Below are positions 1 through 54,999 of a DNA stretch of 64,000 bases, one piece after another. A program made the position numbers and the translations under genes. Source of the stretch: Rhizomicrobium sp. (GTDB lineage: Bacteria; Pseudomonadota; Alphaproteobacteria; Micropepsales; Micropepsaceae); assembly GCA_036272695.1 (NCBI GenBank), contig DATAYG010000079.1:11214-75213 (forward strand). The letters run 5' to 3'. How positions within the stretch are numbered: position 1 is the first letter of the stretch; every line of letters begins with the position of its first letter. The notes under the pieces are model-generated. The model was not told the origin of the DNA, searched no databases, and was given only the letters and a program-made list of their open reading frames with translations.

Positions 1-575
1 ATCGGCAGCGGCGCAAAGCTCGGATGCAGCACCACGGGCTTCAGTGCCCGCCAGTACTTGTGCAGATCGATCACCGGGACAAAAGGGAAGAGACGGTAGC
101 CGAGCAGTGCCACAAGCAGCAGGCAAGCGACGGACTGGCCGGGCAAGAGTCCGCGAAAGGCGCGGCGCCGCTCCTCACCGACCGCCATGCCGGCCAGCCC
201 GCCGAGCCATGTCCCGAGCGTGTTGAGGTACAGATCCGACATGTTCGTGACGCGGCCCGCGTCATAGAATTGCGCGAGCTCGATACCGGTGCACAGCAGC
301 AATCCGAACAAGGTCACGGCCAGCAAACGCCGCGGCGCGCGAAGCGCCTGCACACCGAAGAAACCCAACGGCAGGTAAAGCAGGATGTTGGCGACAAGAT
401 CGCCAAAGCTTGTCGGCGGCTTTGACCAGCTCGCCAGCAATGTCGCGACCGCTCCTGCGGACGCGCGCGGAACGCGGAATGCATAGGGATAAAGCGAGCC
501 GTGCACGATCACCACAACGACGCCCATCGAGACAAGCGCGAAACCGCGGTCGAGCCCAGATCGAGCCGCTTGCAT
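1..575 (-). CDS. VanZ-family membrane protein (runs off left edge)
   Basis: Absent from the ORF track (no stop in window). Manual translation from ATG at 575, directly after the TAG of the upstream gene: MQAARSGLDRGFALVSMGVVVIVHGSLYPY...DLVANILLYLPLGFF...CTGIELAQFY...RVTNMSDLYLNTLG, the VanZ pattern. Confidence 0.75.
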   Translation of the reverse strand, partial: MQAARSGLDRGFALVSMGVVVVIVHGSLYPYAFRVPRASAGAVATLLASWSKPPTSFGDLVANILLYLPLGFFGVQALRAPRRLLAVTLFGLLLCTGIELAQFYDAGRVTNMSDLYLNTLGTWLGGLAGMAVGEERRRAFRGLLPGQSVACLLLVALLGYRLFPFVPVIDLHKYWRALKPVVLHPSFAPLP

Positions 576-1196
576 CTATCGTCGCTCCTGCGGCAAGCCG
601 ACAGCCGCCGGATTCTCGCGCACGCAATGTTCCGTAATAATCGTGTTCATCGGGCGGTCGTGGGGCTGCGGATGGATGGTTGAGAGCCGCGAGAATTCGA
701 AGCCGACACCGACAGACAGCGGCGAGGCGTCGTAGGCCGCAAGCGTGGCATCGTAATAGCCTGCACCATAGCCGAGGCGATATCCGGCATCGTCGAAACC
801 GACCAGCGGGACGATCAACGCGGGGGGCTGAACCGACGGCCCGTTCGCCGGATGGGGGATATTCCAGACGCCCGGTTCCATTTCGGCGTCTTCGTTCCAG
901 CACCGGAACTCAAGCGGCCGGCCGCGGCCGATGACAACCGGAAGCGCCACGCGGCCGCCGCTGCGGAGCACCTCGCGCATATAGGGGACAGAGTTGAACT
1001 CCCGCCGAAAGGGCCAGTAACAGCCAATCAATTCGTGGCTGTCGGGCGGCAGGACGGTGAGAAGCGCACTCATGATCATCTCACCGGCGCAGCGATGCTC
1101 GGCGGGCGTCATGGCTCTGCGGCGATCGAGCAGGCGCGCGCGCTCCTGCTTCCGCCATTCCCGAACATTGAATGGTTGTTCGGAGCCCTGGGTCAT
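576..1196 (-). CDS. ygfA: 5-formyltetrahydrofolate cyclo-ligase (YgfA/Fau family)
   Basis: YWPFRREF, VALPVV and LIVPLVGFDDAGYRLGYGAGYYDATL...HDRPMNTIITE motifs. Confidence 0.9.
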   Translation of the reverse strand: MTQGSEQPFNVREWRKQERARLLDRRRAMTPAEHRCAGEMIMSALLTVLPPDSHELIGCYWPFRREFNSVPYMREVLRSGGRVALPVVIGRGRPLEFRCWNEDAEMEPGVWNIPHPANGPSVQPPALIVPLVGFDDAGYRLGYGAGYYDATLAAYDASPLSVGVGFEFSRLSTIHPQPHDRPMNTIITEHCVRENPAAVGLPQERR

Positions 1197-1606
1197 GAAT
1201 CGAGATTGCCCCAGGACCGTATGTGCCGAATGCGTATGACGATGACCGCCGACAGGTGCATCGCCGCATATTGCTTATAACGGCTCCGAAGCAGCCGGAT
1301 CGCCTCGGTACGTTGCGGTCCGTCGGAAAGCAGTTCTGCCGTGCCGTCAATTCGGATCCAGCCGAGACGCGACCAGTCTTCCTCGTAGTGATCCGCGAGA
1401 AATGTCACGTTTGGATTTTCGAGGATATTCCGCAGCCGCCTGAGCAACTGCCCGCTTTTCGGCTTCTCGTCTATCGCCGTGTAGAGCGCTTGTTCATGCA
1501 CGACAAAACAGACGGGCACCAGATGCGGGTTGCCGGAATGACCGGCGGTTGCCAGATGGCCGATGCGGCGGTGCGTCAGGAATTCGCGTTCGATGTCAGA
1601 CAGCAT
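1193..1606 (-). CDS. PPOX-class (pyridoxamine 5'-phosphate oxidase-like) putative F420-dependent oxidoreductase
   Basis: Likely start ATG 1606 (MLSDIEREFLTHRRIGHLATAG); PHLVPVCFV...LYTAIDEKPK...RRLRNILENPNV...DHYEEDWSRLGWIRIDG. Confidence 0.75.
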   Translation of the reverse strand: MLSDIEREFLTHRRIGHLATAGHSGNPHLVPVCFVVHEQALYTAIDEKPKSGQLLRRLRNILENPNVTFLADHYEEDWSRLGWIRIDGTAELLSDGPQRTEAIRLLRSRYKQYAAMHLSAVIVIRIRHIRSWGNLDS

Positions 1607-1607
1607 T

Positions 1608-2351
1608 TCATCCGCGCAGATTCTGTTTGGCGATATTGACCCATTCGCGCTGGCGCCGGCGATAATAGCCAGGCGCATCGCGCATGGCGTCGACGATTTC
1701 GCGGAATAGCTTTTCCGCACCGGCCCGGTCGCCCATGTCCTGCAGGAGCAAGGCATAGCGGCACCGAGCCTCCTCGCCGGGATAGACCGGGATGAGTGAC
1801 TGATATTCGGCCGTTGCCGCTTCATCCTTGCCTTGCAGCGCTAGTGCGCGCGCATAGTCGAGCCTTGCATCGACGGTGAAATCCGCCGGCGATACGGATT
1901 TCAGGGATTCGAACGCCGTCTGTGCGCCGGAGGCGTCGCCGGCGAGCAATCTGGCGCGCGCAAGCCCGTGCAACAGCGCCGGGTCCTCGGAATGCGCGCC
2001 CCCGATTGCACTCGCATAAAGGTCAACCGCCTCCTGATACCGGCCGCGCTTGATGCATTCCTCTGCGAACACGCGTTTGGACTGCGCCGAGCCGATCGTC
2101 TCGACATCGCGCTTCTTGCGGCTGTAAGTCGCTCCGGAATCGGCCAGGCCGGCCGCGTCGTCAAATATGCGCCGCACCGGCGCATGTCCGCGCACCGCAT
2201 CCGGCAGCACCCCAAATAACATGTAGGCGATACATCCCAACCATGGCACAAACATGATCGGCAAAATCCAGATCCAGGGGCGATCGGTGCGGATCACATG
2301 CGCCGCACAGCCGAGCTGTACCAACAGGGTGATGATATAAAAATACGACAT
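1608..2351 (-). CDS. Membrane-anchored tetratricopeptide-repeat protein
   Basis: Two N-terminal hydrophobic helices (HVIRTDRPWIWILPIMFVPWLGCIAY), then TPR-like A/L/Y helical repeats. Confidence 0.7.
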   Translation of the reverse strand: MSYFYIITLLVQLGCAAHVIRTDRPWIWILPIMFVPWLGCIAYMLFGVLPDAVRGHAPVRRIFDDAAGLADSGATYSRKKRDVETIGSAQSKRVFAEECIKRGRYQEAVDLYASAIGGAHSEDPALLHGLARARLLAGDASGAQTAFESLKSVSPADFTVDARLDYARALALQGKDEAATAEYQSLIPVYPGEEARCRYALLLQDMGDRAGAEKLFREIVDAMRDAPGYYRRRQREWVNIAKQNLRG

Positions 2352-2377
2352 TCCCTCGGTCCGGTTTTACCGTCTTC

Positions 2378-2839
2378 TCAGGCCTGTTTTTCCCAGCGGC
2401 CGCCCGCCGACTGCCGCCAATAGGTGGCGTCATGCCCGCTCTGCCGTGCAGCGGACCAGGCCGTCCGCGCCCCCGAAAGCGCGGATGCATCGCGACCGTC
2501 GAATAAAACAACTATTCGTTTGAACTCCGTCGCTTCGCCATCCCACGATCGGGGCGCCATGCCGCCGACGAGGAACAGCACATCCGCCCGGCCGGGATTG
2601 ACGTCCTCGACCGCGATCAGCACAGGTTGCTTCGCCGGATCGCCGTCACCGGCTTGCGCATGCGGCAGGAAACTCTCTTCACTCCATGTCCATAAGAGAT
2701 TGTCGATCGCCTGCGCGCGCTCGGCCGAATCCGCGCGGATCAGCGCGCGCCAGCCCCGCGCCAGGGTGCGTTCGACAAGCCCGGGCAGAACTTCGTCGAG
2801 AGACTGCCGTTCGAGATGATAGAAGAGCACTTCACTCAT
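2378..2839 (-). CDS. holC: DNA polymerase III subunit chi
   Basis: MSEVLFYHLER...LWTWSEESFLPH...WRQSAGGRWEKQA; adjacent to pepA as usual. Confidence 0.92.
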   Translation of the reverse strand: MSEVLFYHLERQSLDEVLPGLVERTLARGWRALIRADSAERAQAIDNLLWTWSEESFLPHAQAGDGDPAKQPVLIAVEDVNPGRADVLFLVGGMAPRSWDGEATEFKRIVVLFDGRDASALSGARTAWSAARQSGHDATYWRQSAGGRWEKQA

Positions 2840-2877
2840 ATGGTGACTTCAAGGCGCATCGCGGCGCGGTCGCCCTG

Positions 2878-4374
2878 CTATTTCTCGTAATTATCGGCGA
2901 TCAGGCGATCTAACACCCGCACGCCCCATCCCGTGCCCCAGGACGGTGCCAGTTCCTTGTGCTCGCCATCCTGCCAGGCGACGCCGGCGATATCGAGATG
3001 CGCCCAGGGGGTCTTGTTCACGAAGCGCTGGAGGAATTGCGCGGCGGTGATCGAGCCCGCGTTCGGACCGCCGATATTCTTCATGTCGGCGATCTTCGAC
3101 TTGAGCAGTTTGTCATAGCCATCGCCGAGCGGAAGACGCCAGGCGGGCTCGCCGACCGCCCGCGCCGCGTTGGTAATCTGCTCTGCGAGCGCGTCGTCGT
3201 TGGAAAATAGTCCGGCATGCTCGTGCCCAAGCGCCACCAGGATGGCGCCGGTGAGCGTAGCGAGATCGATCACGCATTTCGGTTTGAGCTGCGATTGCGC
3301 GTACCAGAGCGCGTCGGCAAGGACCAGACGCCCCTCCGCATCCGTATTCAGGACCTCTATCGTCTGCCCCGACATCGACTTCACGACGTCGTCGGGACGC
3401 TGCGCTTTGCCGTCGGGCATATTCTCGACGAGCCCGACCACGCCCACCACATTCGCGCGCGCCTTGCGCGCCGCAAGCGCCTGGATTGTCCCGGCGACGG
3501 CCGCGGCACCACCCATATCGCCCTTCATGCCCATCATCCCGGCGCCGCTCTTGAGCGACAGACCGCCGGAATCGAAGCAGACGCCCTTGCCGACGAGCGC
3601 GACTGGCGCCGCCTCGGCCTTCTTCGCGCCGTTCCACTGCATCACGACGAGCTTGCTCTCGCGCTCGCTGCCCTGCCCGACTCCCAGCAGCGCCCCCATG
3701 CCGAGCTTTTTCATTTCCGCTTCGCCGAGGACACGCACCTCTACGCCAAGCTTCGACAGCGACTGCACCCGCTTCGCGAATTCCTCGGGCGAGAGCACAT
3801 TGGGGGGCTCGTTGACGAGATCGCGCGCCAAGAACACTCCTTCCGCGACCGCATCCATCGCGGCGAAGGTGCGCTTCGCGGCCTGCGGATCGGACGTCGC
3901 AACCGCAATTTCCTTCAGCGTCGGTTCGTGTTCGTCCCGGTCTTTCGTGCGGTACCGGTTGAAGGTGTAGCAGCGCAATCGCGCGCCCATAGCGAGATGC
4001 GATGCCAGCATCACCCCCTCGGCAGGAGCTCCCTCCGGAGCGTCGATTGCAAAGGTGAGCGCCGTTTCCCCGTTCGCGAACAGTTTTCCCACCACGCCGG
4101 CCGCGACCCGCTCGGCCGCCAGCGCGTCGAATTTTTCCGGCTTGCCGAGACCGGCAAGCAGCAGCCGCGACGCCTTGAGCCCGGCCGGCGCAACGACCTC
4201 CAGAATCTGTCCGGGCTTTCCCGAAAACCGGCTGACAGCCATGGCCCTCTTGATTGCACCGCCCGACAGACGGTCGGCTTCCGACGCCTGACCCGAAAGC
4301 TTGCCGCCTTCAGGTACCCCCAACGCGATGGCTCCGGTGCCGGTCAGTGACGGCGGCACGAACTTTATTTGCAT
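2878..4374 (-). CDS. pepA: Leucyl aminopeptidase (M17)
   Basis: LVGKGVCFDSGGLSLK, MKGDMGGAA and NTDAEGRLVLAD motifs. Confidence 0.97.
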   Translation of the reverse strand: MQIKFVPPSLTGTGAIALGVPEGGKLSGQASEADRLSGGAIKRAMAVSRFSGKPGQILEVVAPAGLKASRLLLAGLGKPEKFDALAAERVAAGVVGKLFANGETALTFAIDAPEGAPAEGVMLASHLAMGARLRCYTFNRYRTKDRDEHEPTLKEIAVATSDPQAAKRTFAAMDAVAEGVFLARDLVNEPPNVLSPEEFAKRVQSLSKLGVEVRVLGEAEMKKLGMGALLGVGQGSERESKLVVMQWNGAKKAEAAPVALVGKGVCFDSGGLSLKSGAGMMGMKGDMGGAAAVAGTIQALAARKARANVVGVVGLVENMPDGKAQRPDDVVKSMSGQTIEVLNTDAEGRLVLADALWYAQSQLKPKCVIDLATLTGAILVALGHEHAGLFSNDDALAEQITNAARAVGEPAWRLPLGDGYDKLLKSKIADMKNIGGPNAGSITAAQFLQRFVNKTPWAHLDIAGVAWQDGEHKELAPSWGTGWGVRVLDRLIADNYEK

Positions 4375-16765: not shown

Positions 16766-16983
16766 TCACTCAAATAGCGCAAATAAATTAAGTTAGGTGA
16801 CAGGTCCACCATTCACACCCCATCGCAGAACAACGGCGGGAGTCGCAGTCTTAAATGCGAACGCGGGATTTGTCATAAGGGTGTATGAAAGAGTACTGAC
16901 AAGCCAGCGCGGCGCGACTGGACTGTCGCGCGGATAATTGGCGAAAGACCGCGAACGCGTCAGATATCGGCGACCCAAACAGA

Positions 16984-46286: not shown

Positions 46287-47195
46287 TTACCCCCTCAGGC
46301 TCTGAACGATAGGCTCGCGTTTCGCCACCTTATAAGTCGAAGCGATGATGGGCTCGGCCCAGAAGCTCGCAAACCATTTGCGGAGCCAGGGGTCGTTGCC
46401 GGTGAAGGCCGTCGCGTCGGCGTTAACGTTCACTTTCGACTGCACCTCCGCGAGCGTGAGCCCCTGTTTCGTCGGCGGTGCAACCTGCACCTCCACATTC
46501 CTCGAGGCCGAAATAATCCTGTCGATCTGCGCGCGATCTTTCTGCGGCATACCGTGACCGGGAACCAGAATGCGGAACGGCATGCGCGCAGCTTTTCGAG
46601 CACGTGGATCCATTCGGCGGGATAGCTTTCGCAGCCATAGGGAAACGGCAGAATCACCGTTTCGCCAGCTATGACGATCTGCTGTTTCGCCAGCCAGACA
46701 ACCGCATCGCCGTCCGTGTTTGCCCGTCCCAGGAACAGTATCTGCACGGGGCGAACGGAATCATCGATGACAAGCTTGTCGGTAAAGCTTTCCTTCGTCG
46801 TCAGTGTAACTGCCCGTCGAGGTCGCGCGCCCATTGCCGCAGATCGAACAGCAACGCCGCATAGTGGAGCTGCAAGTCCGGGTCGTCGATCTTCGCGGCC
46901 TGTTCCCAGATGCGATCCTCGTATCGCCGCAGAAGCTTCTGATATTTGTCATTCGCCGCCAGATCGGCATGGCCCGGCGTGTTCATCGTAACAGGATCGG
47001 CGAGACGCCGTTGCGTTGCCACCGTCGAAATGGTCCGCGCATTCGGCCAGGCCTTGAGAATCTCCGACAGCCCCTGCGGCTTGTCCCCATGCCATTGACT
47101 GATGATAATGGTCTTGACCGGCTTCGTACTTAGCGAATGTACGATTTCGACGATGCGCACGCCGGCACCTTTGGATCCGGCGGCATCTACAAGCT
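46287..47195 (-). pseudogene. Metallo-beta-lactamase-fold hydrolase pseudogene
   Basis: Three consecutive frames give IISQWHGDKPQG (degenerate HxHxDH), ANTDGDAVVW and LVPGHG; frameshifts near 46815 and 46586; N-terminus missing. Confidence 0.75.
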
Positions 47196-47543
47196 TTTCG
47201 CCGTTCCCCTCGCCCTTCTTTTCCCGGCCGTTATCCTATCCAGAACCGCGCGGTAACCCTGATGCGGCTCCTGCCTCAGGAACCGCGCAACGCGGGTGAT
47301 CGTCGCCAGGCTGGCGCCGGTGCGGTCATGGATTTCGCGATAAGACAGCGCACCCTCATTGAGCAGGCGCGCGATCTTCCACCGCTCGGCAAGGGCCGAA
47401 ATCTCCGCCGGCGTGCACAGATCGAGCAGGAACAGCCTGCATTCTTCCGGCGTCTTCAGCTGAAAGAACGCTTCGCAAAGCGCGTCGAGGCCGGAGGACT
47501 GACCGGCATTGCGGGCCGCAAGACCGCGGACGCTGCTCTTCAT
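47187..47543 (-). CDS. YerC/YecD (TrpR-like) repressor, candidate his regulator
   Basis: EECRLFLLDLCTPAEISALAERWKIARLL...SYREIHDRTGASLATITRVARFL; divergent from hisG. Confidence 0.88.
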   Translation of the reverse strand: MKSSVRGLAARNAGQSSGLDALCEAFFQLKTPEECRLFLLDLCTPAEISALAERWKIARLLNEGALSYREIHDRTGASLATITRVARFLRQEPHQGYRAVLDRITAGKRRARGTAKSL

Positions 47544-47556
47544 GGTTCCCACGCCC

Positions 47557-47601
47557 TTGCCTTTCCCGGTTCTTGTGCTATTGTTCTAGCATGATAGAAC
47601 A
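47557..47601 (+). promoter_or_regulatory. Predicted his promoter overlapped by a TrpR-type operator
   Basis: TTGCCT (47557-62) - 16 bp - TGn-TATTGT (47579-84); palindrome TGTTCTA-N6-TAGAACA at 47582-47601 covering the -10 end and the ATG at 47591. Confidence 0.65.
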
Positions 47602-48520
47602 TGCAATCGATAACCGAACCAGAAATGCGCCGCGCCTCGCGGGCGACCGCGTCCGCATGGCGGTGCAGAGAAGCGGCCGCCTCGCCGAAGACAGTGTCGC
47701 GTTGCTCCGCAATTGCGGACTGCACGTCGACCGCAGCAAGGACCAGCTCTTCTGCCGGATCAAGGAGCTGCCGATCGATGTCCTGCGTGTGCGCGACGAC
47801 GACATACCGGGCTTTGTCAGCAGCGGCATCTGCGATCTCGGCATCGTCGGCGAAAACGTATTCGCCGAGCTGAAAGAAGTCGGAAACGGCAGCTTCGGCG
47901 CGGACATACTCGAGCGGCTGGGGTTCTCGCTGTGCCGGCTTGCGATTGCCGTACCGGAAGACGCCGCCGTCAACGCCATCTCCGATCTCGACGGAGCAAC
48001 CATCGCAACGTCATATCCCCATCTGCTGAAACGATTTCTACGTGCGAATGGCATATCGGCCAAGACCCTGCTGATGACGGGTTCGGTCGAGGTCGCCCCC
48101 CGCCTCAGGATCGCCGACGCCATCTGCGATATTGTTTCCTCGGGCGCGACGCTCGCGGCCAATGGATTGCGGGAACTGGCGGTCGTGTTGCGCAGCGAAG
48201 CCCTGCTGATTCGTTCCGCCCAGCGATTGTCGCCGGGGAAGGAGGAAACGGCATATCGCCTTCTCGAGCGCATGCGCGGCGCACTGCTGGCGGAGGACAG
48301 CAAATACATCATGCTCAACGCGCCGCGCGCCGCGGTCGACGAGATCGCTCGGCTTCTGCCGGGCTGCGACGCACCTACAATCATGGATCTGAACAGGGAG
48401 AACATGGTCGCCATACACGCCGTCTGCAAGGAAGCCGTATTCTGGGAAACCATGGAACAAATCCGCGCCGCCGGCGGCAAGGCAATCCTGGTGCTGCCGA
48501 TCGAAAAGATGATGGCGTGA
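47591..48520 (+). CDS. hisG: ATP phosphoribosyltransferase, long form
   Basis: AVQRSGRL, RDDDIPGFV, DLGIVGEN, IATSYP, GSVEVAP...ADAICDIVSSGATL, C-terminal regulatory domain ending VLPIEKM. Confidence 0.95.
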   Translation: MIEHAIDNRTRNAPRLAGDRVRMAVQRSGRLAEDSVALLRNCGLHVDRSKDQLFCRIKELPIDVLRVRDDDIPGFVSSGICDLGIVGENVFAELKEVGNGSFGADILERLGFSLCRLAIAVPEDAAVNAISDLDGATIATSYPHLLKRFLRANGISAKTLLMTGSVEVAPRLRIADAICDIVSSGATLAANGLRELAVVLRSEALLIRSAQRLSPGKEETAYRLLERMRGALLAEDSKYIMLNAPRAAVDEIARLLPGCDAPTIMDLNRENMVAIHAVCKEAVFWETMEQIRAAGGKAILVLPIEKMMA

Positions 48521-48536: not shown

Positions 48537-49835
48537 ATGAGAACGGTTGTCTGGAATGAGATTTCGGATGCGGAACGCCGGCTGGTCCTGGGCCGGCCGG
48601 CCCGCAGCTACGATGCTGATCTGCGTGAGACGGTCGCCGCGATACTGCGCGATGTGAAAGTCCGTGGCGACGAGGCCGTAAAAGATTTTGCAAGATCCCT
48701 CGACGACTTCGCGGATTCCGATTTCCGGGTTCAGAGTTCCGAAATCATGGAATCGCCCGAGGGTATTGACCGGCAGCTGCGCGGAGCCATGGAACGCGCC
48801 ATTGCCAACCTCTCGGCCTTTCACGCGGCACAACTGCCCCGGACCATCCGCGTGGAAACCATGCCTGGCATTACCTGTGAATTGCATTGGCACCCTGTGG
48901 AGCGAGTCGGCTTCTATGTTCCTGGCGGAACGGCGCCGCTGTTTTCCTCACTTCTGATGCAGGCCATTCCGGCACGAATCGCCGGCTGCACGGACTCCAT
49001 TCTTTGCACGCCGCCGCAGCGCGACGGAAGAGTACATCCCGCCATACTGGCAGCCGCGAAGCTCTGCGGCATCGAGAACATCTATGCCATTGGCGGCGCA
49101 CAGGCCATCGCGGCCATGGCCTACGGGACGGCGACGATTCCCAAAGTCGACAAGATATCCGGGCCCGGCAATGCGTTCGTGACATCGGCGAAACAGATGG
49201 TGGCGCAGGATCCGGCAGGCGCCGCCATCGATCTGCCGGCGGGTCCTTCGGAAGTCATGGTCGTTGCGGAAGTTTCTGCCCGGCCCGATTGGATCGCGGC
49301 GGATCTTCTCGCCCAGGCGGAACATGGATTGGATGCACACGCATTGTTTGTCACCACGAGCGCAACCCTCGCCGCTTCGGTTCAAGCGGATATTCATGCG
49401 CAGACCGCCGGGCTGCGCCGCCGCGCCATCGTGGAGACGAGCCTCAACAGCGGCTCCATCATCGTCGTTCCAAATATGCAAACGGCGATCGGAATCGTGA
49501 ACCGCTACGCGCCCGAGCATCTCATTTTGCACGATGACGACGCCGATAGCTGGCTGCCGGAAATCCGGCATGCCGGTTCGATATTTCTCGGCCGCTATTC
49601 GCCGGAAACGGCGGGCGATTATGCCAGCGGAGCGAATCACGTTCTGCCGACCGGCGGGCTCGCGCGGGCCTATGGTGGCATCACAGTGTTCAGCTTCCTG
49701 AAAAGCATGACCGTACAGAGGCTGCAACCCGAAGGCCTGCAAAACCTGGGGCCAGCTCTGATCGCGATGGCCGAGGCCGAGGGATTGCAGGCGCATGCCA
49801 ATGCCGTGTCGATCCGACTGAGGGCGGCGGCATGA
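48537..49835 (+). CDS. hisD: Histidinol dehydrogenase
   Basis: GFYVPGGTAPLFS, GGAQAIAAMAYG, GPGNAFV, PAGPSEV, QAEHG, APEHL, GDYASGANHVLPT. Confidence 0.96.
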   Translation: MRTVVWNEISDAERRLVLGRPARSYDADLRETVAAILRDVKVRGDEAVKDFARSLDDFADSDFRVQSSEIMESPEGIDRQLRGAMERAIANLSAFHAAQLPRTIRVETMPGITCELHWHPVERVGFYVPGGTAPLFSSLLMQAIPARIAGCTDSILCTPPQRDGRVHPAILAAAKLCGIENIYAIGGAQAIAAMAYGTATIPKVDKISGPGNAFVTSAKQMVAQDPAGAAIDLPAGPSEVMVVAEVSARPDWIAADLLAQAEHGLDAHALFVTTSATLAASVQADIHAQTAGLRRRAIVETSLNSGSIIVVPNMQTAIGIVNRYAPEHLILHDDDADSWLPEIRHAGSIFLGRYSPETAGDYASGANHVLPTGGLARAYGGITVFSFLKSMTVQRLQPEGLQNLGPALIAMAEAEGLQAHANAVSIRLRAAA

Positions 49836-51490
49836 ACTGGCTGGAAGAACTGATACGTCCCGACTTGCGCTCATTGGCCCCCTATCGCTCCGCGCGCAGC
49901 GAAGGCGATGCACTGCCGATAAGCATCGACGCCAACGAATTTCCCTGGCCGCCCTTCGGCTCCGCAGCCGCACATTGGAAGCCCAACCGATATCCGGAAG
50001 CGCAACCCCGAGAACTCGTCCGGCGCCTGACCGAAATCTGGAATGCCGGTCCCGATTCCATCTTGCTGACACGCGGCAGCGATGAAGGAATCGACATGCT
50101 GTTGCGACTGTTTTGTCGGGCCGGCCGCGATCAGGTCCTTATCTGTCCGCCCACTTACGGGATGTACAGTGTAGCGGCCGGCATACAGGGCGCAGATGTT
50201 CTCGAAATCCCGTTGACGCACGATTGGCAGCTTGATGTTGCCGTCATCATCGAGGCCTGCACGCCGGCAACAAAGCTGATCTTCATTCCGTCGCCCAATG
50301 CTCCGATGGGGCATTTGATGGCGCGCGCGGACATACTTGCCCTCTGCATGGCACGCGCCGGCAAGAGCCTCGTCGTCATCGACGAGGCCTATGTCGAATT
50401 CACGCTCACGCCCGAGGGATTGCTGCCGGACCTCGCGCGTTGCTCGAATCTCGTCGTGCTTCGGACCCTCTCTAAGGCGCACGCGCTCGCGGGTGAGCGC
50501 ATCGGCGCAGTGATCGCAGCACCTGGCCTGATCAATAATCTACAGAAGATTCTCGCGCCCTACCCGCTTGCACGGAGCAGCATCGGCGTGGCGCTTGATG
50601 CTCTCGGCCCGAACGGATTCATACAAAACGCCGAGCGCCGGCGGCTGCTGATTTCCGAGCGGGAGCGGATGGCGGAGCTTCTTCCGCAGTCGCCATGGAT
50701 CAAAAGCATATTCCCCAGCGTCGCAAATTTTGTCCTGGTGCGGACAGCAAGCTCCGAATCTCTTGTCCGGCATCTCCGGCAATTCGGCATTCTGGCGCGC
50801 GCCCGAAATCGCGATATCCCCGATACGGTGCGCCTGTCGGTCGGAACGCCGGAAGAGAACGACGTCGTGCTGCAGGCGCTTGACATCGGGATCGGCCAAA
50901 CGGCGCGTCAGCCACAGAGGCTCTTCTCCATCAGGCGCAGGACGAAGGAAACGGCCATTGATGTCACGGTCAATCTGGACGGGCGCAGCTTTCTCAGGAT
51001 CAACAGCGGGATCGGCTTTTTCGACCACATGCTGTCGCAGCTTGCGATGCATGGCGGTTTCGGGCTGGAGCTGCATTGCAACGGCGACCTCGAAATCGAC
51101 CAGCATCATACAATCGAAGACAGCGCGCTTGCGCTGGGCGAGGCGCTAAAGAATGCGCTCGGCACCAAGACCGGTATCGCACGCTTCGGCTTTAATGCGC
51201 CGCTGGATGAGGCGATGGCACAGGTCACAGTCGATCTGTGCGGGCGGCCTTATCTTGTATTTGCCGGTGTTCTACCGGCCGAGAACATCGGTCAGATGAG
51301 CTCGGAAATGGTGCCCCATTTCTTCCGGTCGCTGGCAACCGCGCTTGGCGCAACCATTCACATCAGCGTTCAGGGCGCGAATACCCATCACATGGCCGAA
51401 GCAATCTTCAAGGCGACGGGACGCGCCCTGCGCCAGGCGTTCCGGCACGAGGGCCGCTCCGGCGTCCCGTCGACCAAGGGCGTGTTATGA
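49832..51490 (+). CDS. HisC-HisB fusion: histidinol-phosphate aminotransferase + imidazoleglycerol-phosphate dehydratase
   Basis: N-part: NRYP, RGSDEGID, VIDEAYVEF, RTLSKAHALAGERIG. C-part: RRTKETAI, FFDHML, DQHHTIED, NTHHMAEAIFKA, PSTKGVL. One 552-aa ORF with no internal stop. Confidence 0.9.
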   Translation: MNWLEELIRPDLRSLAPYRSARSEGDALPISIDANEFPWPPFGSAAAHWKPNRYPEAQPRELVRRLTEIWNAGPDSILLTRGSDEGIDMLLRLFCRAGRDQVLICPPTYGMYSVAAGIQGADVLEIPLTHDWQLDVAVIIEACTPATKLIFIPSPNAPMGHLMARADILALCMARAGKSLVVIDEAYVEFTLTPEGLLPDLARCSNLVVLRTLSKAHALAGERIGAVIAAPGLINNLQKILAPYPLARSSIGVALDALGPNGFIQNAERRRLLISERERMAELLPQSPWIKSIFPSVANFVLVRTASSESLVRHLRQFGILARARNRDIPDTVRLSVGTPEENDVVLQALDIGIGQTARQPQRLFSIRRRTKETAIDVTVNLDGRSFLRINSGIGFFDHMLSQLAMHGGFGLELHCNGDLEIDQHHTIEDSALALGEALKNALGTKTGIARFGFNAPLDEAMAQVTVDLCGRPYLVFAGVLPAENIGQMSSEMVPHFFRSLATALGATIHISVQGANTHHMAEAIFKATGRALRQAFRHEGRSGVPSTKGVL

Positions 51491-52080
51491 TCGCCCTTGT
51501 AGATAGCGGCGTCGCCAATCTCGCGTCCGTCCTCGCAGCCCTCTCCCGTCTTGGCCATAGCGCCGAAGTAACGGCCAATCCGGGATTTGTACGACGTGCC
51601 GACCGGATCATCCTGCCCGGCGTCGGCGCCGCCGCCGCGGCCATGGAGCAGCTGCGCAAAAGGGGTCTCGTCGATGCTCTGCGCGTGGTGAACCAGCCGG
51701 TTCTCGGTATCTGTCTCGGCATGCAGCTCCTTTTCGCCCGGTCGGACGAAGGAGAAGGCGTTGATTGTCTTGGCGTCATCCCGGGAAGGATAAAGCCGCT
51801 GAAAGCCCTGCGGGCCTATCCGATCCCGCATATGGGCTGGAACCGTATTCGCGTCGACGGGGCCGGGCATCCATTGCTGCGCGGCATTGCCGACGGCACC
51901 TTCATGTATTTCGCGCACAGTTTTGCCGCGCCGAAAGGTCGCCACGCTTTGGCGTTCGCCGAGCATGGCGAACAGTTCCCCGCTGTGGTCGCTCATGGAA
52001 ATTATATCGGCTGTCAGTTCCATCCGGAACGTTCAGGAGCGCCGGGGCTCAAACTGATCGAAAATTTCCTTGGCCTGTGA
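51487..52080 (+). CDS. hisH: IGP synthase glutaminase subunit
   Basis: ILPGVG, GICLGMQ, PHMGWN, YFAHSF, QFHPERS. Start ATG 51487. Confidence 0.95.
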   Translation: MIALVDSGVANLASVLAALSRLGHSAEVTANPGFVRRADRIILPGVGAAAAAMEQLRKRGLVDALRVVNQPVLGICLGMQLLFARSDEGEGVDCLGVIPGRIKPLKALRAYPIPHMGWNRIRVDGAGHPLLRGIADGTFMYFAHSFAAPKGRHALAFAEHGEQFPAVVAHGNYIGCQFHPERSGAPGLKLIENFLGL

Positions 52081-52081
52081 T

Positions 52082-52825
52082 ATGGACATTATTCCGGCCA
52101 TCGATCTCAGGAATGGCCAGTGCGTGCGCCTGACCCGGGGAGACTTCTCGCAAATCGAAGTCTACGAGAGAGATCCGATCCTGCAGGCGCTGCGCTTCGC
52201 ACAAGCGGGCGCGCAATGGCTTCATATCGTCGATCTCGACGGTGCGAGGGAAGGCGGCAGCCGGCAGCGCGATATAATAGAGCGCATGGCACAAAGCGTT
52301 CCGCTGAAATTGCAGGTCGGCGGCGGCATACGCGATGAAATCGATTTGAAGGCATTGCTCGACCGCGGCATTGAACGCGTCGTGATCGGCAGCCTCGCCG
52401 TTCAGGCGCCGGCGCGCGTCAGGGATTGGCTCCGGCGTTTCGGATCCGCCCGCATCGCTGTGGCTCTCGATGTGCGCCCGGATGAAAGGGGCGAACCGCG
52501 GGTTCTTACCCAGGCCTGGCAAAAAGAAACCGGTACCAGCCTGTGGGCGCTTCTGGACATTTATGAGAATGACGGTCTCAAGACGGTTCTCTGCACCGAT
52601 GTCGGGCGCGACGGAATGTTGGCCGGACCAAACCTTGAACTGTATCGGAGAATTCACAGCCTGAACCCCAAACTTGAACTTCTTGCGTCAGGAGGCGTGA
52701 GGAATGTCGATGATTTGAACGACCTGGCGCAACTCGGCATAAGCGGCGCAATCATCGGCAAAGCCATCTACGCGGGGCATGTCGACCTCGCCGGCGCGAT
52801 AATGCAGGTCAAGCATGCTTGCTAG
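52082..52825 (+). CDS. hisA: ProFAR isomerase
   Basis: [49 protein letters not shown]. Confidence 0.95.
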
Positions 52826-53582
52826 GCGCATCATCCCCTGCCTCGACGTCAGAGACGGCGTGGTCGTCAAGGGCGTCAAATTCCGCAATCATGAGGTCGT
52901 GGGCGACATCGTCGATCTTGCATGGCGCTATCGGGACGAAGGCGCCGACGAACTTGTGCTTTACGATATCACCGCGAGCAGCGACGGGCGCAGTGTGGAT
53001 CGAAGCTGGATCGCGCGTATCGCAGCGGTCCTCGACATACCCTTTTGCGTCGCGGGCGGCATTCGCAGCATCGAAGATGCGCGCGGAATACTGGCCCGGG
53101 GCGCCGACAAAATCTCGATCAACTCGCCGGCGCTCGAAAATCCCGATCTGATCGACAAATTGGCAGATGAGTTCGGCAGCCAGTGCGTAGTGGTCGGAAT
53201 CGACAGCCGCCGGATCGGCAGCGAGTATCGCGTCCATCAATATACCGGCGATGTCGCGCGCACGCGGACGACGCCGCGCAACACGCTGGCATGGGCAGCG
53301 GAAGCCGAGAGGCGCGGCGCAGGCGAGATCGTGCTGAACTGCATGGACAAGGACGGCACGCGCGACGGATATGACATCGTACAGCTACGCGCCCTACGCG
53401 ATACCATCTCGATTCCACTCATCGCCTCCGGCGGTGCGGGAAGAAGGGAACATTTCCTGGAGGCATTCCGCGAGGGGCGGGTCGATGGAGCTCTGGCGGC
53501 CGGCATTTTTCACCGGCGCGTCGTTACGATCGAAGACGTGAAGCATTATCTCGCGCAACAGGAAATAGTCGTGCGGATATGA
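52815..53582 (+). CDS. hisF: IGP synthase cyclase subunit
   Basis: [52 protein letters not shown]. Confidence 0.96.
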
Positions 53583-54211
53583 CCTCCATTACTTGCGCAG
53601 CCGAGGTGGATGCCGTCGATTGGGCGAAAGGCGGCGGGCTGGTTCCCGCCATTGTGCAGGACGTTCCGTCGCTGCGCGTTCTCATGCTCGGATATATGAA
53701 TCGGGCCGCCCTGCAGCAGACGCTGGAAACGAGACACGTCACCTTCTACAGCCGCGGCAAACACCGGCTGTGGGAAAAAGGCGAAACCTCCGGCAATACC
53801 CTGGTCTGCCGGGAAATCAGGCTGGACTGCGATCGCGACACGTTGCTGGTGTTGGCCGAACCGAACGGGCCCACTTGTCATCTGGGTACGCCGACCTGCT
53901 TTGGCGATCACGCGTCACCGGGACTTGCCATATTGGCCGATCTGGCGGCCACGATCCGGCAGCGACGTCGCGACGCGCCTGCCGACAGTTACACGGCCAC
54001 GCTCTTTGCATCCGGTATGCGGCGGATCGCGCAGAAGGTCGGCGAAGAAGGTGTCGAAGTGGCCCTGGCGGCCGGAAACGCGGAAGAACTCGCTGCGGAA
54101 TCCGCCGATCTGCTTTATCATCTGCTGGTCCTGCTCGAAGCGGGTGGCGTCAGCCTGCAGGATGTGATGACTGTCCTTCGCGATCGGGCGCAGACCAGGG
54201 GACCGTCCTGA
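53579..54211 (+). CDS. hisIE: Bifunctional PR-AMP cyclohydrolase / PR-ATP pyrophosphatase
   Basis: [36 protein letters not shown]; SYTATL...[10 protein letters not shown]...ADLLYHL. Confidence 0.95.
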
Positions 54212-54213
54212 CG

Positions 54214-54999
54214 ATGGATTACGGGCGTGAGTTTGCCGGCTTTTTCGACCGGATGGCCGACGCAGCGGGTGAAATTGCGCTGAGATATTTCCGCACCGAT
54301 GTCGCCATCGACGAGAAAGATGACCATTCCCCGGTCACGCAAGCAGATCGCGAGATCGAAGCCAAGCTGCGGGCCATGATTGGGGCGGAGCATCCGTCGC
54401 ATGGCATCGTGGGCGAAGAATACGGAAGCGAACACGAAGACGCCGAATTCATCTGGTACATCGATCCCATCGACGGCACGAAATCCTTTGCCATCGGGCG
54501 CCCGTTGTTTGGTACCATCATCGGGCTCACCCATGCGGGCCAGCCGGTCGCCGGCGTCGTCGATCAGGCTTTCACCAGGGAGCGCTGGTTCGGTATCACC
54601 GGCGCTTTCTGCACGCATAATGGCAGGCGCGTGACGGTTGCCGCGCCGCGCGACCTGAAGGAGGCGCGCCTCTATGTCGGTTCGCCTTCAACCTTTCGCG
54701 ACAAGATCTGTTTCACCGGCTATGAATCACTCTGCCAAGCGGCAAAATGGACGCAGTACAGCGGCGATTGCTACGCCTATGGCCTTCTGGCATCCGGCTG
54801 GATCGATCTGATCGTCGAATGCGATCTCAAGGCGCATGATGTCGTCGGTATCGTCCCCATCGTCAGCGGCGCGGACGGCTTCATTAGCGACTGGGCCGGA
54901 CGCGGCGTCGACGCCGCTACGGACGGCACCGTCGTCGCTGCAAGTTCGAAACAGCTGGCGATGGACGCTTTGCGCATAATGGGAAGCCGATCGCGCTGA
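54214..54999 (+). CDS. hisN: Inositol-monophosphatase-family histidinol-phosphatase
   Basis: SPVTQADRE, IVGEEYG, WYIDPIDGTKSF, GDCYAYG, DWAG; last gene of the his operon. Start ATG 54214. Confidence 0.85.
   Translation: MDYGREFAGFFDRMADAAGEIALRYFRTDVAIDEKDDHSPVTQADREIEAKLRAMIGAEHPSHGIVGEEYGSEHEDAEFIWYIDPIDGTKSFAIGRPLFGTIIGLTHAGQPVAGVVDQAFTRERWFGITGAFCTHNGRRVTVAAPRDLKEARLYVGSPSTFRDKICFTGYESLCQAAKWTQYSGDCYAYGLLASGWIDLIVECDLKAHDVVGIVPIVSGADGFISDWAGRGVDAATDGTVVAASSKQLAMDALRIMGSRSR

Follow-up and report, generated by a model that had tools for sequence, protein, structure and literature searches.

We found that a 64-kb stretch of the genome of Rhizomicrobium sp., a soil bacterium (Micropepsales, Alphaproteobacteria; contig DATAYG010000079.1), hereafter the window, carries a histidine biosynthesis operon in which histidinol-phosphate aminotransferase (HisC) and imidazoleglycerol-phosphate dehydratase (IGPD) are encoded by a single open reading frame (ORF). 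This gene, hisCB, occupies positions 49832..51490 of the plus strand, starts with ATG, stops with TGA (51488-51490) and encodes 552 aa. The product of IGPD, imidazole-acetol phosphate, is the substrate of HisC. In the fused enzyme, the C-terminal IGPD would convert imidazoleglycerol phosphate to imidazole-acetol phosphate (step 6), and the N-terminal HisC would convert imidazole-acetol phosphate and glutamate to histidinol phosphate (step 7). Taken as a whole, the best explanation, to which we assign a probability of roughly 0.7, is a predicted bifunctional enzyme that descends from a hisNB-type operon, has its phosphatase supplied in trans and builds an assembly based on an IGPD 24-mer.

The domain composition of the protein was determined using profile searches. 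Pfam placed Aminotran_1_2 (PF00155) at residues 52-350 (152.5 bits) and IGPD (PF00475) at residues 393-533, where 198.1 bits against a cutoff of 27 assigns the C-terminal half to the IGPD family by its hidden Markov model (HMM). The same search of the 552-aa protein returned no third domain and no HAD match. In NCBIfam, the hisC model TIGR01141 scored 298.8 bits (cutoff 276.55), with residues 9-351 aligned to model positions 1-347 of 349, and the monofunctional HisB model NF002111 scored 245.5 bits (cutoff 231) over residues 362-552. The bifunctional HisNB model NF003937 reached 268.7 bits, below its cutoff of 443, and matched through model positions 160-355 only, indicating that the HAD half is absent from the protein. 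A custom HAD HMM detected no HAD phosphatase domain in the whole window. On this basis, together with an alignment of 31 homologs and Foldseek comparisons, we delimited the HisC domain at residues 1-352 (49832..50887, plus strand; TIGR01141, alignment and Foldseek), a 13-residue inter-domain linker, GIGQTARQPQRLF, at residues 353-365 (50888..50926, plus strand; alignment) and the IGPD domain at residues 366-552 (50927..51487, plus strand; PF00475, NF002111, alignment and Foldseek). The translation also includes IGIGQTARQPQRLFSIRRRTKET, the linker cited in an earlier note on this DNA.

The catalytic residues of both halves were retained. The pyridoxal phosphate (PLP) lysine K215 lies in LSKAHALAGERIG and was invariant in the 31-homolog alignment, as were D184, Y187, R223, R323 and R334; N156 was kept in 27 of the 31 sequences. 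By analogy with E. coli HisC, K215 is taken to be the Schiff-base lysine and the other residues to bind PLP or phosphate. The Mn-site residues of the IGPD half (H399, H425, H426, E429, H496, H519, H520 and E523) were all invariant as well. The linker, by comparison, was variable in sequence across the same alignment, and this pattern of invariant catalytic residues joined by a variable linker indicates, at the sequence level, that both halves are under purifying selection. Linker length, on the other hand, was 12-14 residues in 119 of the 120 clusters of the family described below, and this tight range suggests a geometric constraint. The conserved protein is probably bifunctional in catalysis. 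The earlier note had described one 552-aa ORF with complete aminotransferase and IGPD motif sets and no HAD phosphatase domain, and the profile matches and invariant sites bear it out on both points.

A stop or frameshift at 50880-50950, which that note had named as the finding that would overturn the fusion, was not seen in contigs from three public soil-metagenome runs. For this check, assembler contigs (not raw reads) were compared with 49500-51800. Run X2 supplied a 5,918-nt contig that spanned the entire interval and matched it at every base without a gap, and run X1 a 1,049-nt contig identical over 50404-51452. The contig from run X3, which belongs to a related strain, differed by 49 substitutions over 50663-51238 but crossed the junction without any gap. 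Furthermore, in a search of 5.8 billion proteins, the best 120 clusters were all 544-562 aa long and all carried PF00155 and PF00475, from 100% down to 59% identity. These clusters, which we refer to as the window family, were named as Rhizomicrobium sp. or as Alphaproteobacteria metagenome-assembled genomes (MAGs), and several were labelled by JGI 'histidinol-phosphate aminotransferase/imidazoleglycerol-phosphate dehydratase/...'.

The architecture also occurred beyond this family. We scanned GTDB species genomes, sampling at least 600 stretches and classifying loci with HMMs made from the two halves. Single-ORF full fusions among the matches listed came from Alphaproteobacteria (L001, at 62% identity, and the more distant L005), a 'Neisseria sp.' MAG (L002), Roseivirgaceae (L003), Bacteroidales (L004) and Rikenella (L032). 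We also searched 1.84 billion 50%-identity representatives exhaustively with the linker plus IGPD as query and classified the best 150 relatives. These included about 17 full HisC-IGPD proteins, about 15 with a degenerate HisC remnant and about 25 canonical HAD-IGPD proteins (HisNB); very few were monofunctional.

A second large family emerged when the L004 protein was used as query: the best 120 matches were all fused, with clusters of up to 372 member sequences from many contigs. These Bacteroidales and Rikenella proteins (L004, L032 and P0281-P0400) contain the same two domains in the same hisG-D-[CB]-H-A-F-IE operon as the window. However, they share only about 39-40% identity with the window protein, their linkers span 16-67 residues rather than 13, and no IMPase gene lies nearby. 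Their HisC groups with unfused Bacteroidota HisC, which indicates a separate origin for this family.

Several unusual sequences were encountered in these searches. The best 150 relatives included four HisD-IGPD proteins (e.g. P0183, P0197 and P0222, 629-633 aa) and one HisD-HisC-IGPD protein (P0168, 1001 aa), each a single database sequence. At an acidobacterial locus (Marinacidobacterales, L017:6519-9053), hisD and hisC share one stop-free frame of 845 codons, again in a single sequence. Long inter-domain inserts of about 40-180 residues with no Pfam match were found in P0212 (701 aa), P0218 (596 aa) and P0243 (589 aa). Decay of a HAD domain is one possible source of these inserts, among others. 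P0212 was rejected as a HisC-HAD-IGPD intermediate because Pfam shows no HAD in its ~180-residue insert. The 'xB' proteins (P0140, P0124 and others) were likewise dropped as evidence for a decayed HAD, since their N-termini are unrelated by Pfam (an MFS transporter fragment and a peptidase A24 N-domain). They are probably chimeric assemblies or gene calls, and they caution against reading architectures from single metagenomic sequences.

A degenerate form was found in Brevundimonas. In 119 clusters of 474-478 aa, the Brevundimonas 'HisB' consists of a truncated HisC-like domain and an intact IGPD, encoded by a gene that follows hisD. The loci include L011:7990-9410 on the complete chromosome of B. 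albigilva (NZ_CP097298.1) as well as L007, L008, L010, L025, L075, L019 and L022, and the species with this protein include B. albigilva, B. subvibrioides and B. aurantiaca. Like the window hisCB, it has an intact IGPD and occupies the same operon slot; the junction is homologous, as is the N-terminal domain to the window HisC. In contrast to the window protein, its HisC half is truncated and key residues are replaced: it lacks the N-terminal arm as well as about 45 internal residues, Leu takes the place of K215 in 118 of the 119 sequences (SLSLAYG), and the substitutions N156E, Y187L and R323D are also present. Judged from these residues, the Brevundimonas HisC half is catalytically dead. No intact hisC was found in the Brevundimonas operon. 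Across the genus, the dead domain is 79% conserved and the IGPD 92%, and this conservation suggests that the dead domain has been kept because it serves a purpose other than catalysis, perhaps a structural one. The same HisC-remnant form was found in Parvularculaceae and in a 'Hydrogenophilaceae' MAG. Databases label the Brevundimonas protein 'HisB' or 'bifunctional HisB'.

We next considered how the window protein might fold and assemble. An AlphaFold2 monomer model built from the 31-member alignment had a mean predicted local distance difference test (pLDDT) score of 84.2 and a predicted template modelling (pTM) score of 0.77. Confidence was low only in the N-terminal arm (residues 21-37) and the last ~10 residues, segments not known to be ordered outside the oligomers of the separate enzymes; residues 351-360 had a pLDDT of about 72. 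By Foldseek, the N-terminal half matched E. coli/Klebsiella HisC (7SZP, 1FG3 and 1GEW) with an E-value of 3e-28 and target-normalised TM scores of 0.80-0.85, and E. coli HisC (1FG3) scored 249 bits against the window HisC half. The C-terminal half matched the IGPD structures 8QAX, 2F1D and 6FWH with TM scores of 0.89-0.94 and root-mean-square deviations of 1.7-2.9 A. No PDB chain spanning both halves was found by sequence search or fold search. Stand-alone HisC (1FG3 and 7SZP) is 35-38% identical to the window half by Foldseek, with the PLP-site residues all present in the window protein. What sets the window protein apart is the added C-terminal IGPD, by which a dimeric enzyme is tethered to one that forms a 24-mer.

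HisNB already shows that an extra N-terminal domain on IGPD is tolerated. The IGPD 24-mer, a particle of 432 symmetry with a diameter of about 110 A, carries its N-terminal sheet on the outside (PMC10978614), so an N-terminal HisC would sit outside the particle, as the HAD domain of HisNB does. The IGPD halves may form the usual octahedral 24-mer core with their N-terminal sheets outward, and the HisC halves may pair as dimers around it; 24 domains would give 12 dimers, matching the 12 two-fold axes, in a particle of roughly 1.4-1.5 MDa. Such a 24-mer core with external HisC dimers is speculative. The fusion would bring 1:1 stoichiometry and co-localisation of two consecutive activities, and channelling of imidazole-acetol phosphate is possible, although speculative. 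The stronger proposal, a closed 1.4-1.5 MDa particle in which imidazole-acetol phosphate is handed over directly and the HisC shell is structurally integral, appears doubtful to us. An integral shell would account for why Brevundimonas conserves a dead HisC domain on its only operon-encoded IGPD.

The origin of the fusion was then addressed by comparing operons. The G-D-C-B-H-A-F-IE backbone, together with a long HisG and a fused HisIE, was common to every fused locus and every HisNB locus. Operons in which hisC adjoins a monofunctional hisB (Burkholderiales, Rubrivivax, Anaerolineales and Nocardiopsis) differ from this type. The family HMMs gave a parallel division: with the IGPD HMM, proteins from hisC/hisNB operons scored 254-309 bits compared with 202-221 bits for those from hisC/monofunctional-hisB operons, and with the HisC HMM the corresponding values were 243-398 and 133-203 bits. 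Bootstrapped neighbour-joining trees were computed separately from 186 columns of the IGPD domain and 354 columns of the HisC domain. The monofunctional-hisB operons were basal in both trees, and the window family formed a clade with 100% bootstrap in the HisC tree.

A clear case of conversion was P0129, a fused protein that nests within Steroidobacteraceae with 100% bootstrap in the HisC tree and 94% in the IGPD tree. Its IGPD half shares 78% identity with the corresponding part of the L057 HisNB, and its HisC half 59% with L057 HisC, while the HAD region of ~165 residues is missing. Taken together, the sequences indicate at least three independent conversions of separate hisC and hisNB into hisCB. 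HAD loss is supported as a general process. We consider it probable that this family descends from a hisNB-type operon. In that scenario, the ancestor would have been a compact gamma-proteobacterial operon with hisC followed by hisNB; the HAD module would have been lost, either directly or via a monofunctional hisB stage, and hisC would have become joined in frame to IGPD. The earlier note had proposed that loss of the HAD domain fused hisC to IGPD. The gamma-type operon, the HMM affinity and the P0129 case support this proposal in general, and for the window family itself it is a probable origin.

Alternatively, the fusion might be a near-neutral by-product of overlapping, coupled genes, created by deletion of the hisC stop together with a dispensable HAD and persisting harmlessly without any channelling role. 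We regard this as a real possibility, although a somewhat improbable one. The occurrence of at least three independent origins fits it, as do the ATGA overlaps in the operon (hisD stop/hisCB start at 49832-49835 and hisCB stop/hisH start at 51487-51490). Three further observations favour it and speak against channelling in particular: HisD-IGPD and HisD-HisC-IGPD proteins occur among close IGPD relatives although the HisD and IGPD steps are non-consecutive; the linker ranges over 16-67 residues in the Bacteroidales family; and Brevundimonas has kept the fusion even though its HisC half lost catalysis. The HisD-IGPD fusions, the loose Bacteroidales linkers and the dead Brevundimonas half argue that channelling is not needed to explain the fusion. 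Nevertheless, a purely neutral fusion does not sit easily with a linker held at 12-14 residues in the window family or with an architecture that is stable down to 59% identity. The dead Brevundimonas HisC domain, 79% conserved and constant in length, also suggests an N-terminal domain that has acquired a role.

Another route to the fusion would be read-through between hisC and an adjacent monofunctional hisB, with no HAD ever between them. Many bacteria do have hisC beside a monofunctional hisB (L006, L014, L016, L020, L029 and L030), and several members of the window family have a Met ~10 residues ahead of TKET that resembles a hisB N-terminus. This Met (RMPRLFS...) was present in L001, L082, P0102, P0110 and P0120 and could be a vestigial monofunctional hisB start. 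In addition, the neighbour-joining trees do not fix the sister group of the window family, because their deep bootstraps are very low. Both the Met and the unfixed sister group weaken the case for descent from hisNB, and the window linker, at 13 residues, is too short to judge for a HAD remnant. However, the long HisG, the fused HisIE and the gene order of the window operon are those of enterobacterial operons, and the family HMMs score hisNB-operon proteins far above monofunctional-hisB-operon proteins. Moreover, of the NCBIfam models the bifunctional one matches the IGPD side best, with an alignment that takes in its inter-domain positions 160-174, and the monofunctional-hisB operons are basal in both trees. 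Considering both sides, we judge read-through rather unlikely and favour descent from a hisNB-type operon.

Under descent from hisNB, histidinol-phosphate phosphatase would have to come from a separate gene acting in trans. The most likely source here is the IMPase-family gene that follows hisIE (54214..54999, plus strand; Inositol_P, PF00459, 139.7 bits), a HisN-like candidate whose function we assign from its operon position. The earlier note had held that an IMPase-type hisN at the operon end offsets the lost phosphatase. An IMPase-family gene does close the operon, with its ATG 2 nt past the hisIE stop, and compensation for the lost HAD is plausible given this operon context. Several observations weigh against it. 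The gene scored 257.2 bits with the HisN model TIGR02067, just short of the cutoff of 275.15, although this far exceeded its scores with CysQ (77.5) and SuhB (63.3). Of 6 family loci, only 3 had a linked IMPase gene, and its position differed: after hisIE in the window and in L001 (6794-7588), and between hisD and hisCB in L082 (6193-6999). It was absent from the L081 and L083 operons and from the vicinity of the Bacteroidota fusions. Finally, HisN-like IMPases in Rhodanobacter proved to be phosphoserine phosphatases by random-barcode transposon sequencing (RB-TnSeq; bioRxiv 10.1101/2024.10.14.618325). The part of the proposal that stands is therefore the presence of the gene, while its role as the replacement is weakened by the patchy linkage and by the Rhodanobacter analogues. 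The variable placement fits independent recruitment of a replacement phosphatase and suggests that the gene was gained or lost more than once.

The remaining alternatives concern the protein itself. An internal start near the junction might also yield free IGPD, so that fused and separate forms coexist. Codon 346 of the window gene is indeed a GTG, with GGAAGAG ahead of it, but no start-type codon lies at a fixed position across five family loci, and L083 has only a TTG, at codon 352. Because no internal start is conserved, we rejected a conserved start for free IGPD; a separately translated IGPD is unlikely, and the coexistence of two forms very improbable. It is still less probable that one half is a pseudo-enzyme here too, for example with HisC serving structurally only and the reaction carried out by another hisC or hisB gene located outside this stretch. 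Brevundimonas, with its dead fused HisC half, provides a precedent, and our view of the genome spans 64 kb. Against this, the family shows no change at K215, D184, Y187, R223, R323, R334 or any Mn ligand, all of which are intact here, the scores with TIGR01141 and NF002111 exceed the equivalog cutoff in each case, the 64-kb window was found to hold no further hisC or hisB, and the L001, L081, L082 and L083 operons have no separate hisC. The idea that sequencing or assembly merged two genes, which could be raised because the window is a metagenome-derived contig checked with assembler contigs rather than raw reads, was rejected as having a negligible chance, given the junction free of indels in three independent assemblies, one from a divergent strain, and the same architecture in more than 120 clusters from NCBI, JGI, ENA and Logan, including contigs of 0.7-1 Mb.

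The rest of the operon is of the compact gamma type (long HisG, fused HisIE), with the order hisG-D-[CB]-H-A-F-IE followed by the IMPase-family gene. On the plus strand, it comprises hisG in its long form (HisG plus HisG_C; 47573..48520), hisD for histidinol dehydrogenase (48537..49835; PF00815, 534.8 bits), hisCB, hisH for the glutamine amidotransferase subunit (51487..52080; domain search), hisA (52070..52825; PF00977, 250.5 bits), hisF (52815..53582; PF00977, 242.6 bits) and hisIE, which fuses PRA-CH and PRA-PH (53579..54211; domain search). The start of hisG is uncertain and may be TTG 47573, ATG 47591 or ATG 47657. Divergent from hisG, on the minus strand, lies a gene for a TrpR-family, HisR-like regulator (47187..47552; PF01371, 84.9 bits), a candidate repressor of the his operon. 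A TrpR-family gene was also found upstream of hisG in L081, and the HisR class of regulators has been described (PMC9413887). The proteobacterial HisR operator TGTAnTArnnnnyTnTTACA was not found near hisG; its sole match in the window with up to 3 mismatches, at 16882, is at chance level. A 20-bp near-palindrome, TGTTCTAGCATGATAGAACA, lies at 47581-47600 between the TrpR-family gene and hisG, overlapping a possible hisG start, with 18 of 20 bases symmetric; it was absent from the other loci compared. No RNA leader or attenuator upstream of hisG was recognised by Rfam at E <= 1. In L081, a member of the window family (GCA_964576515.1), the hisR-his operon adjoins genes at 1-3768 for a relaxase of the MobA/MobL type and a coupling protein of the TraG/TrwB type. 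The L081 operon may therefore belong to a conjugative element or border on one, a point that bears on its horizontal spread.

Among known systems, HisNB (E. coli HisB) is a close counterpart. It shares with the window protein a C-terminal IGPD that bears an extra catalytic domain on its outward N-terminus, the slot after hisD/hisC and before hisH in the same type of operon, and NF003937 as the best model for the IGPD half. The two differ in the N-terminal partner, which in the window is a PLP aminotransferase of ~350 aa rather than a HAD phosphatase of ~165 aa, and in the steps coupled, which are 6 and 7 in the window fusion compared with 6 and 8 in HisNB. As a his-cistron fusion, hisCB belongs to the same phenomenon as hisIE, hisHF/HIS7, HIS4 and the heptafunctional protein of Acanthamoeba. 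Fusion of neighbouring his cistrons is recurrent and has been spread by horizontal gene transfer (PMC1963479, PMC10138114, PMC6029752). Published fusion lists give hisD, N, B, H, F, I and E as partners, and hisC is not among them. The Acanthamoeba protein includes neither HisC nor IGPD, a 2021 survey of 91 Bacteroidota strains reported no HisC fusion, and a 2024 sequence-similarity network of the IGPD family highlighted only IGPD-phosphatase bifunctionals. We found no characterisation of a HisC-IGPD fusion in the searchable literature, which leaves out most subscription journals. The fusion thus appears to be undescribed in that literature, although domain-architecture databases will certainly list such proteins. 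The earlier note had allowed that the architecture might prove common and already characterised: it is indeed frequent in databases, but no publication on it was found.

Current automatic annotations call the fused proteins 'histidinol-phosphate transaminase', 'HisB' or even 'bifunctional HisB', and such labels can mislead metabolic reconstruction into reporting a pathway gap where there is none or a phosphatase that is absent. Experiments would be most worthwhile on the assembly, on channelling and on the pseudo-enzyme derivative of Brevundimonas, a cultured and genetically tractable genus. Histidine biosynthesis is a textbook model of gene fusion, operon compaction and horizontal transfer, in which hisC has stood outside the catalogue of fusions (hisNB, hisIE, hisHF/HIS7 and HIS4). 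A recurrent HisC-IGPD fusion would add to this model a case that, unlike HisNB, joins consecutive steps. It would also offer a natural experiment in non-orthologous replacement of the phosphatase step and a test case for tethering a dimeric enzyme to a 24-mer.

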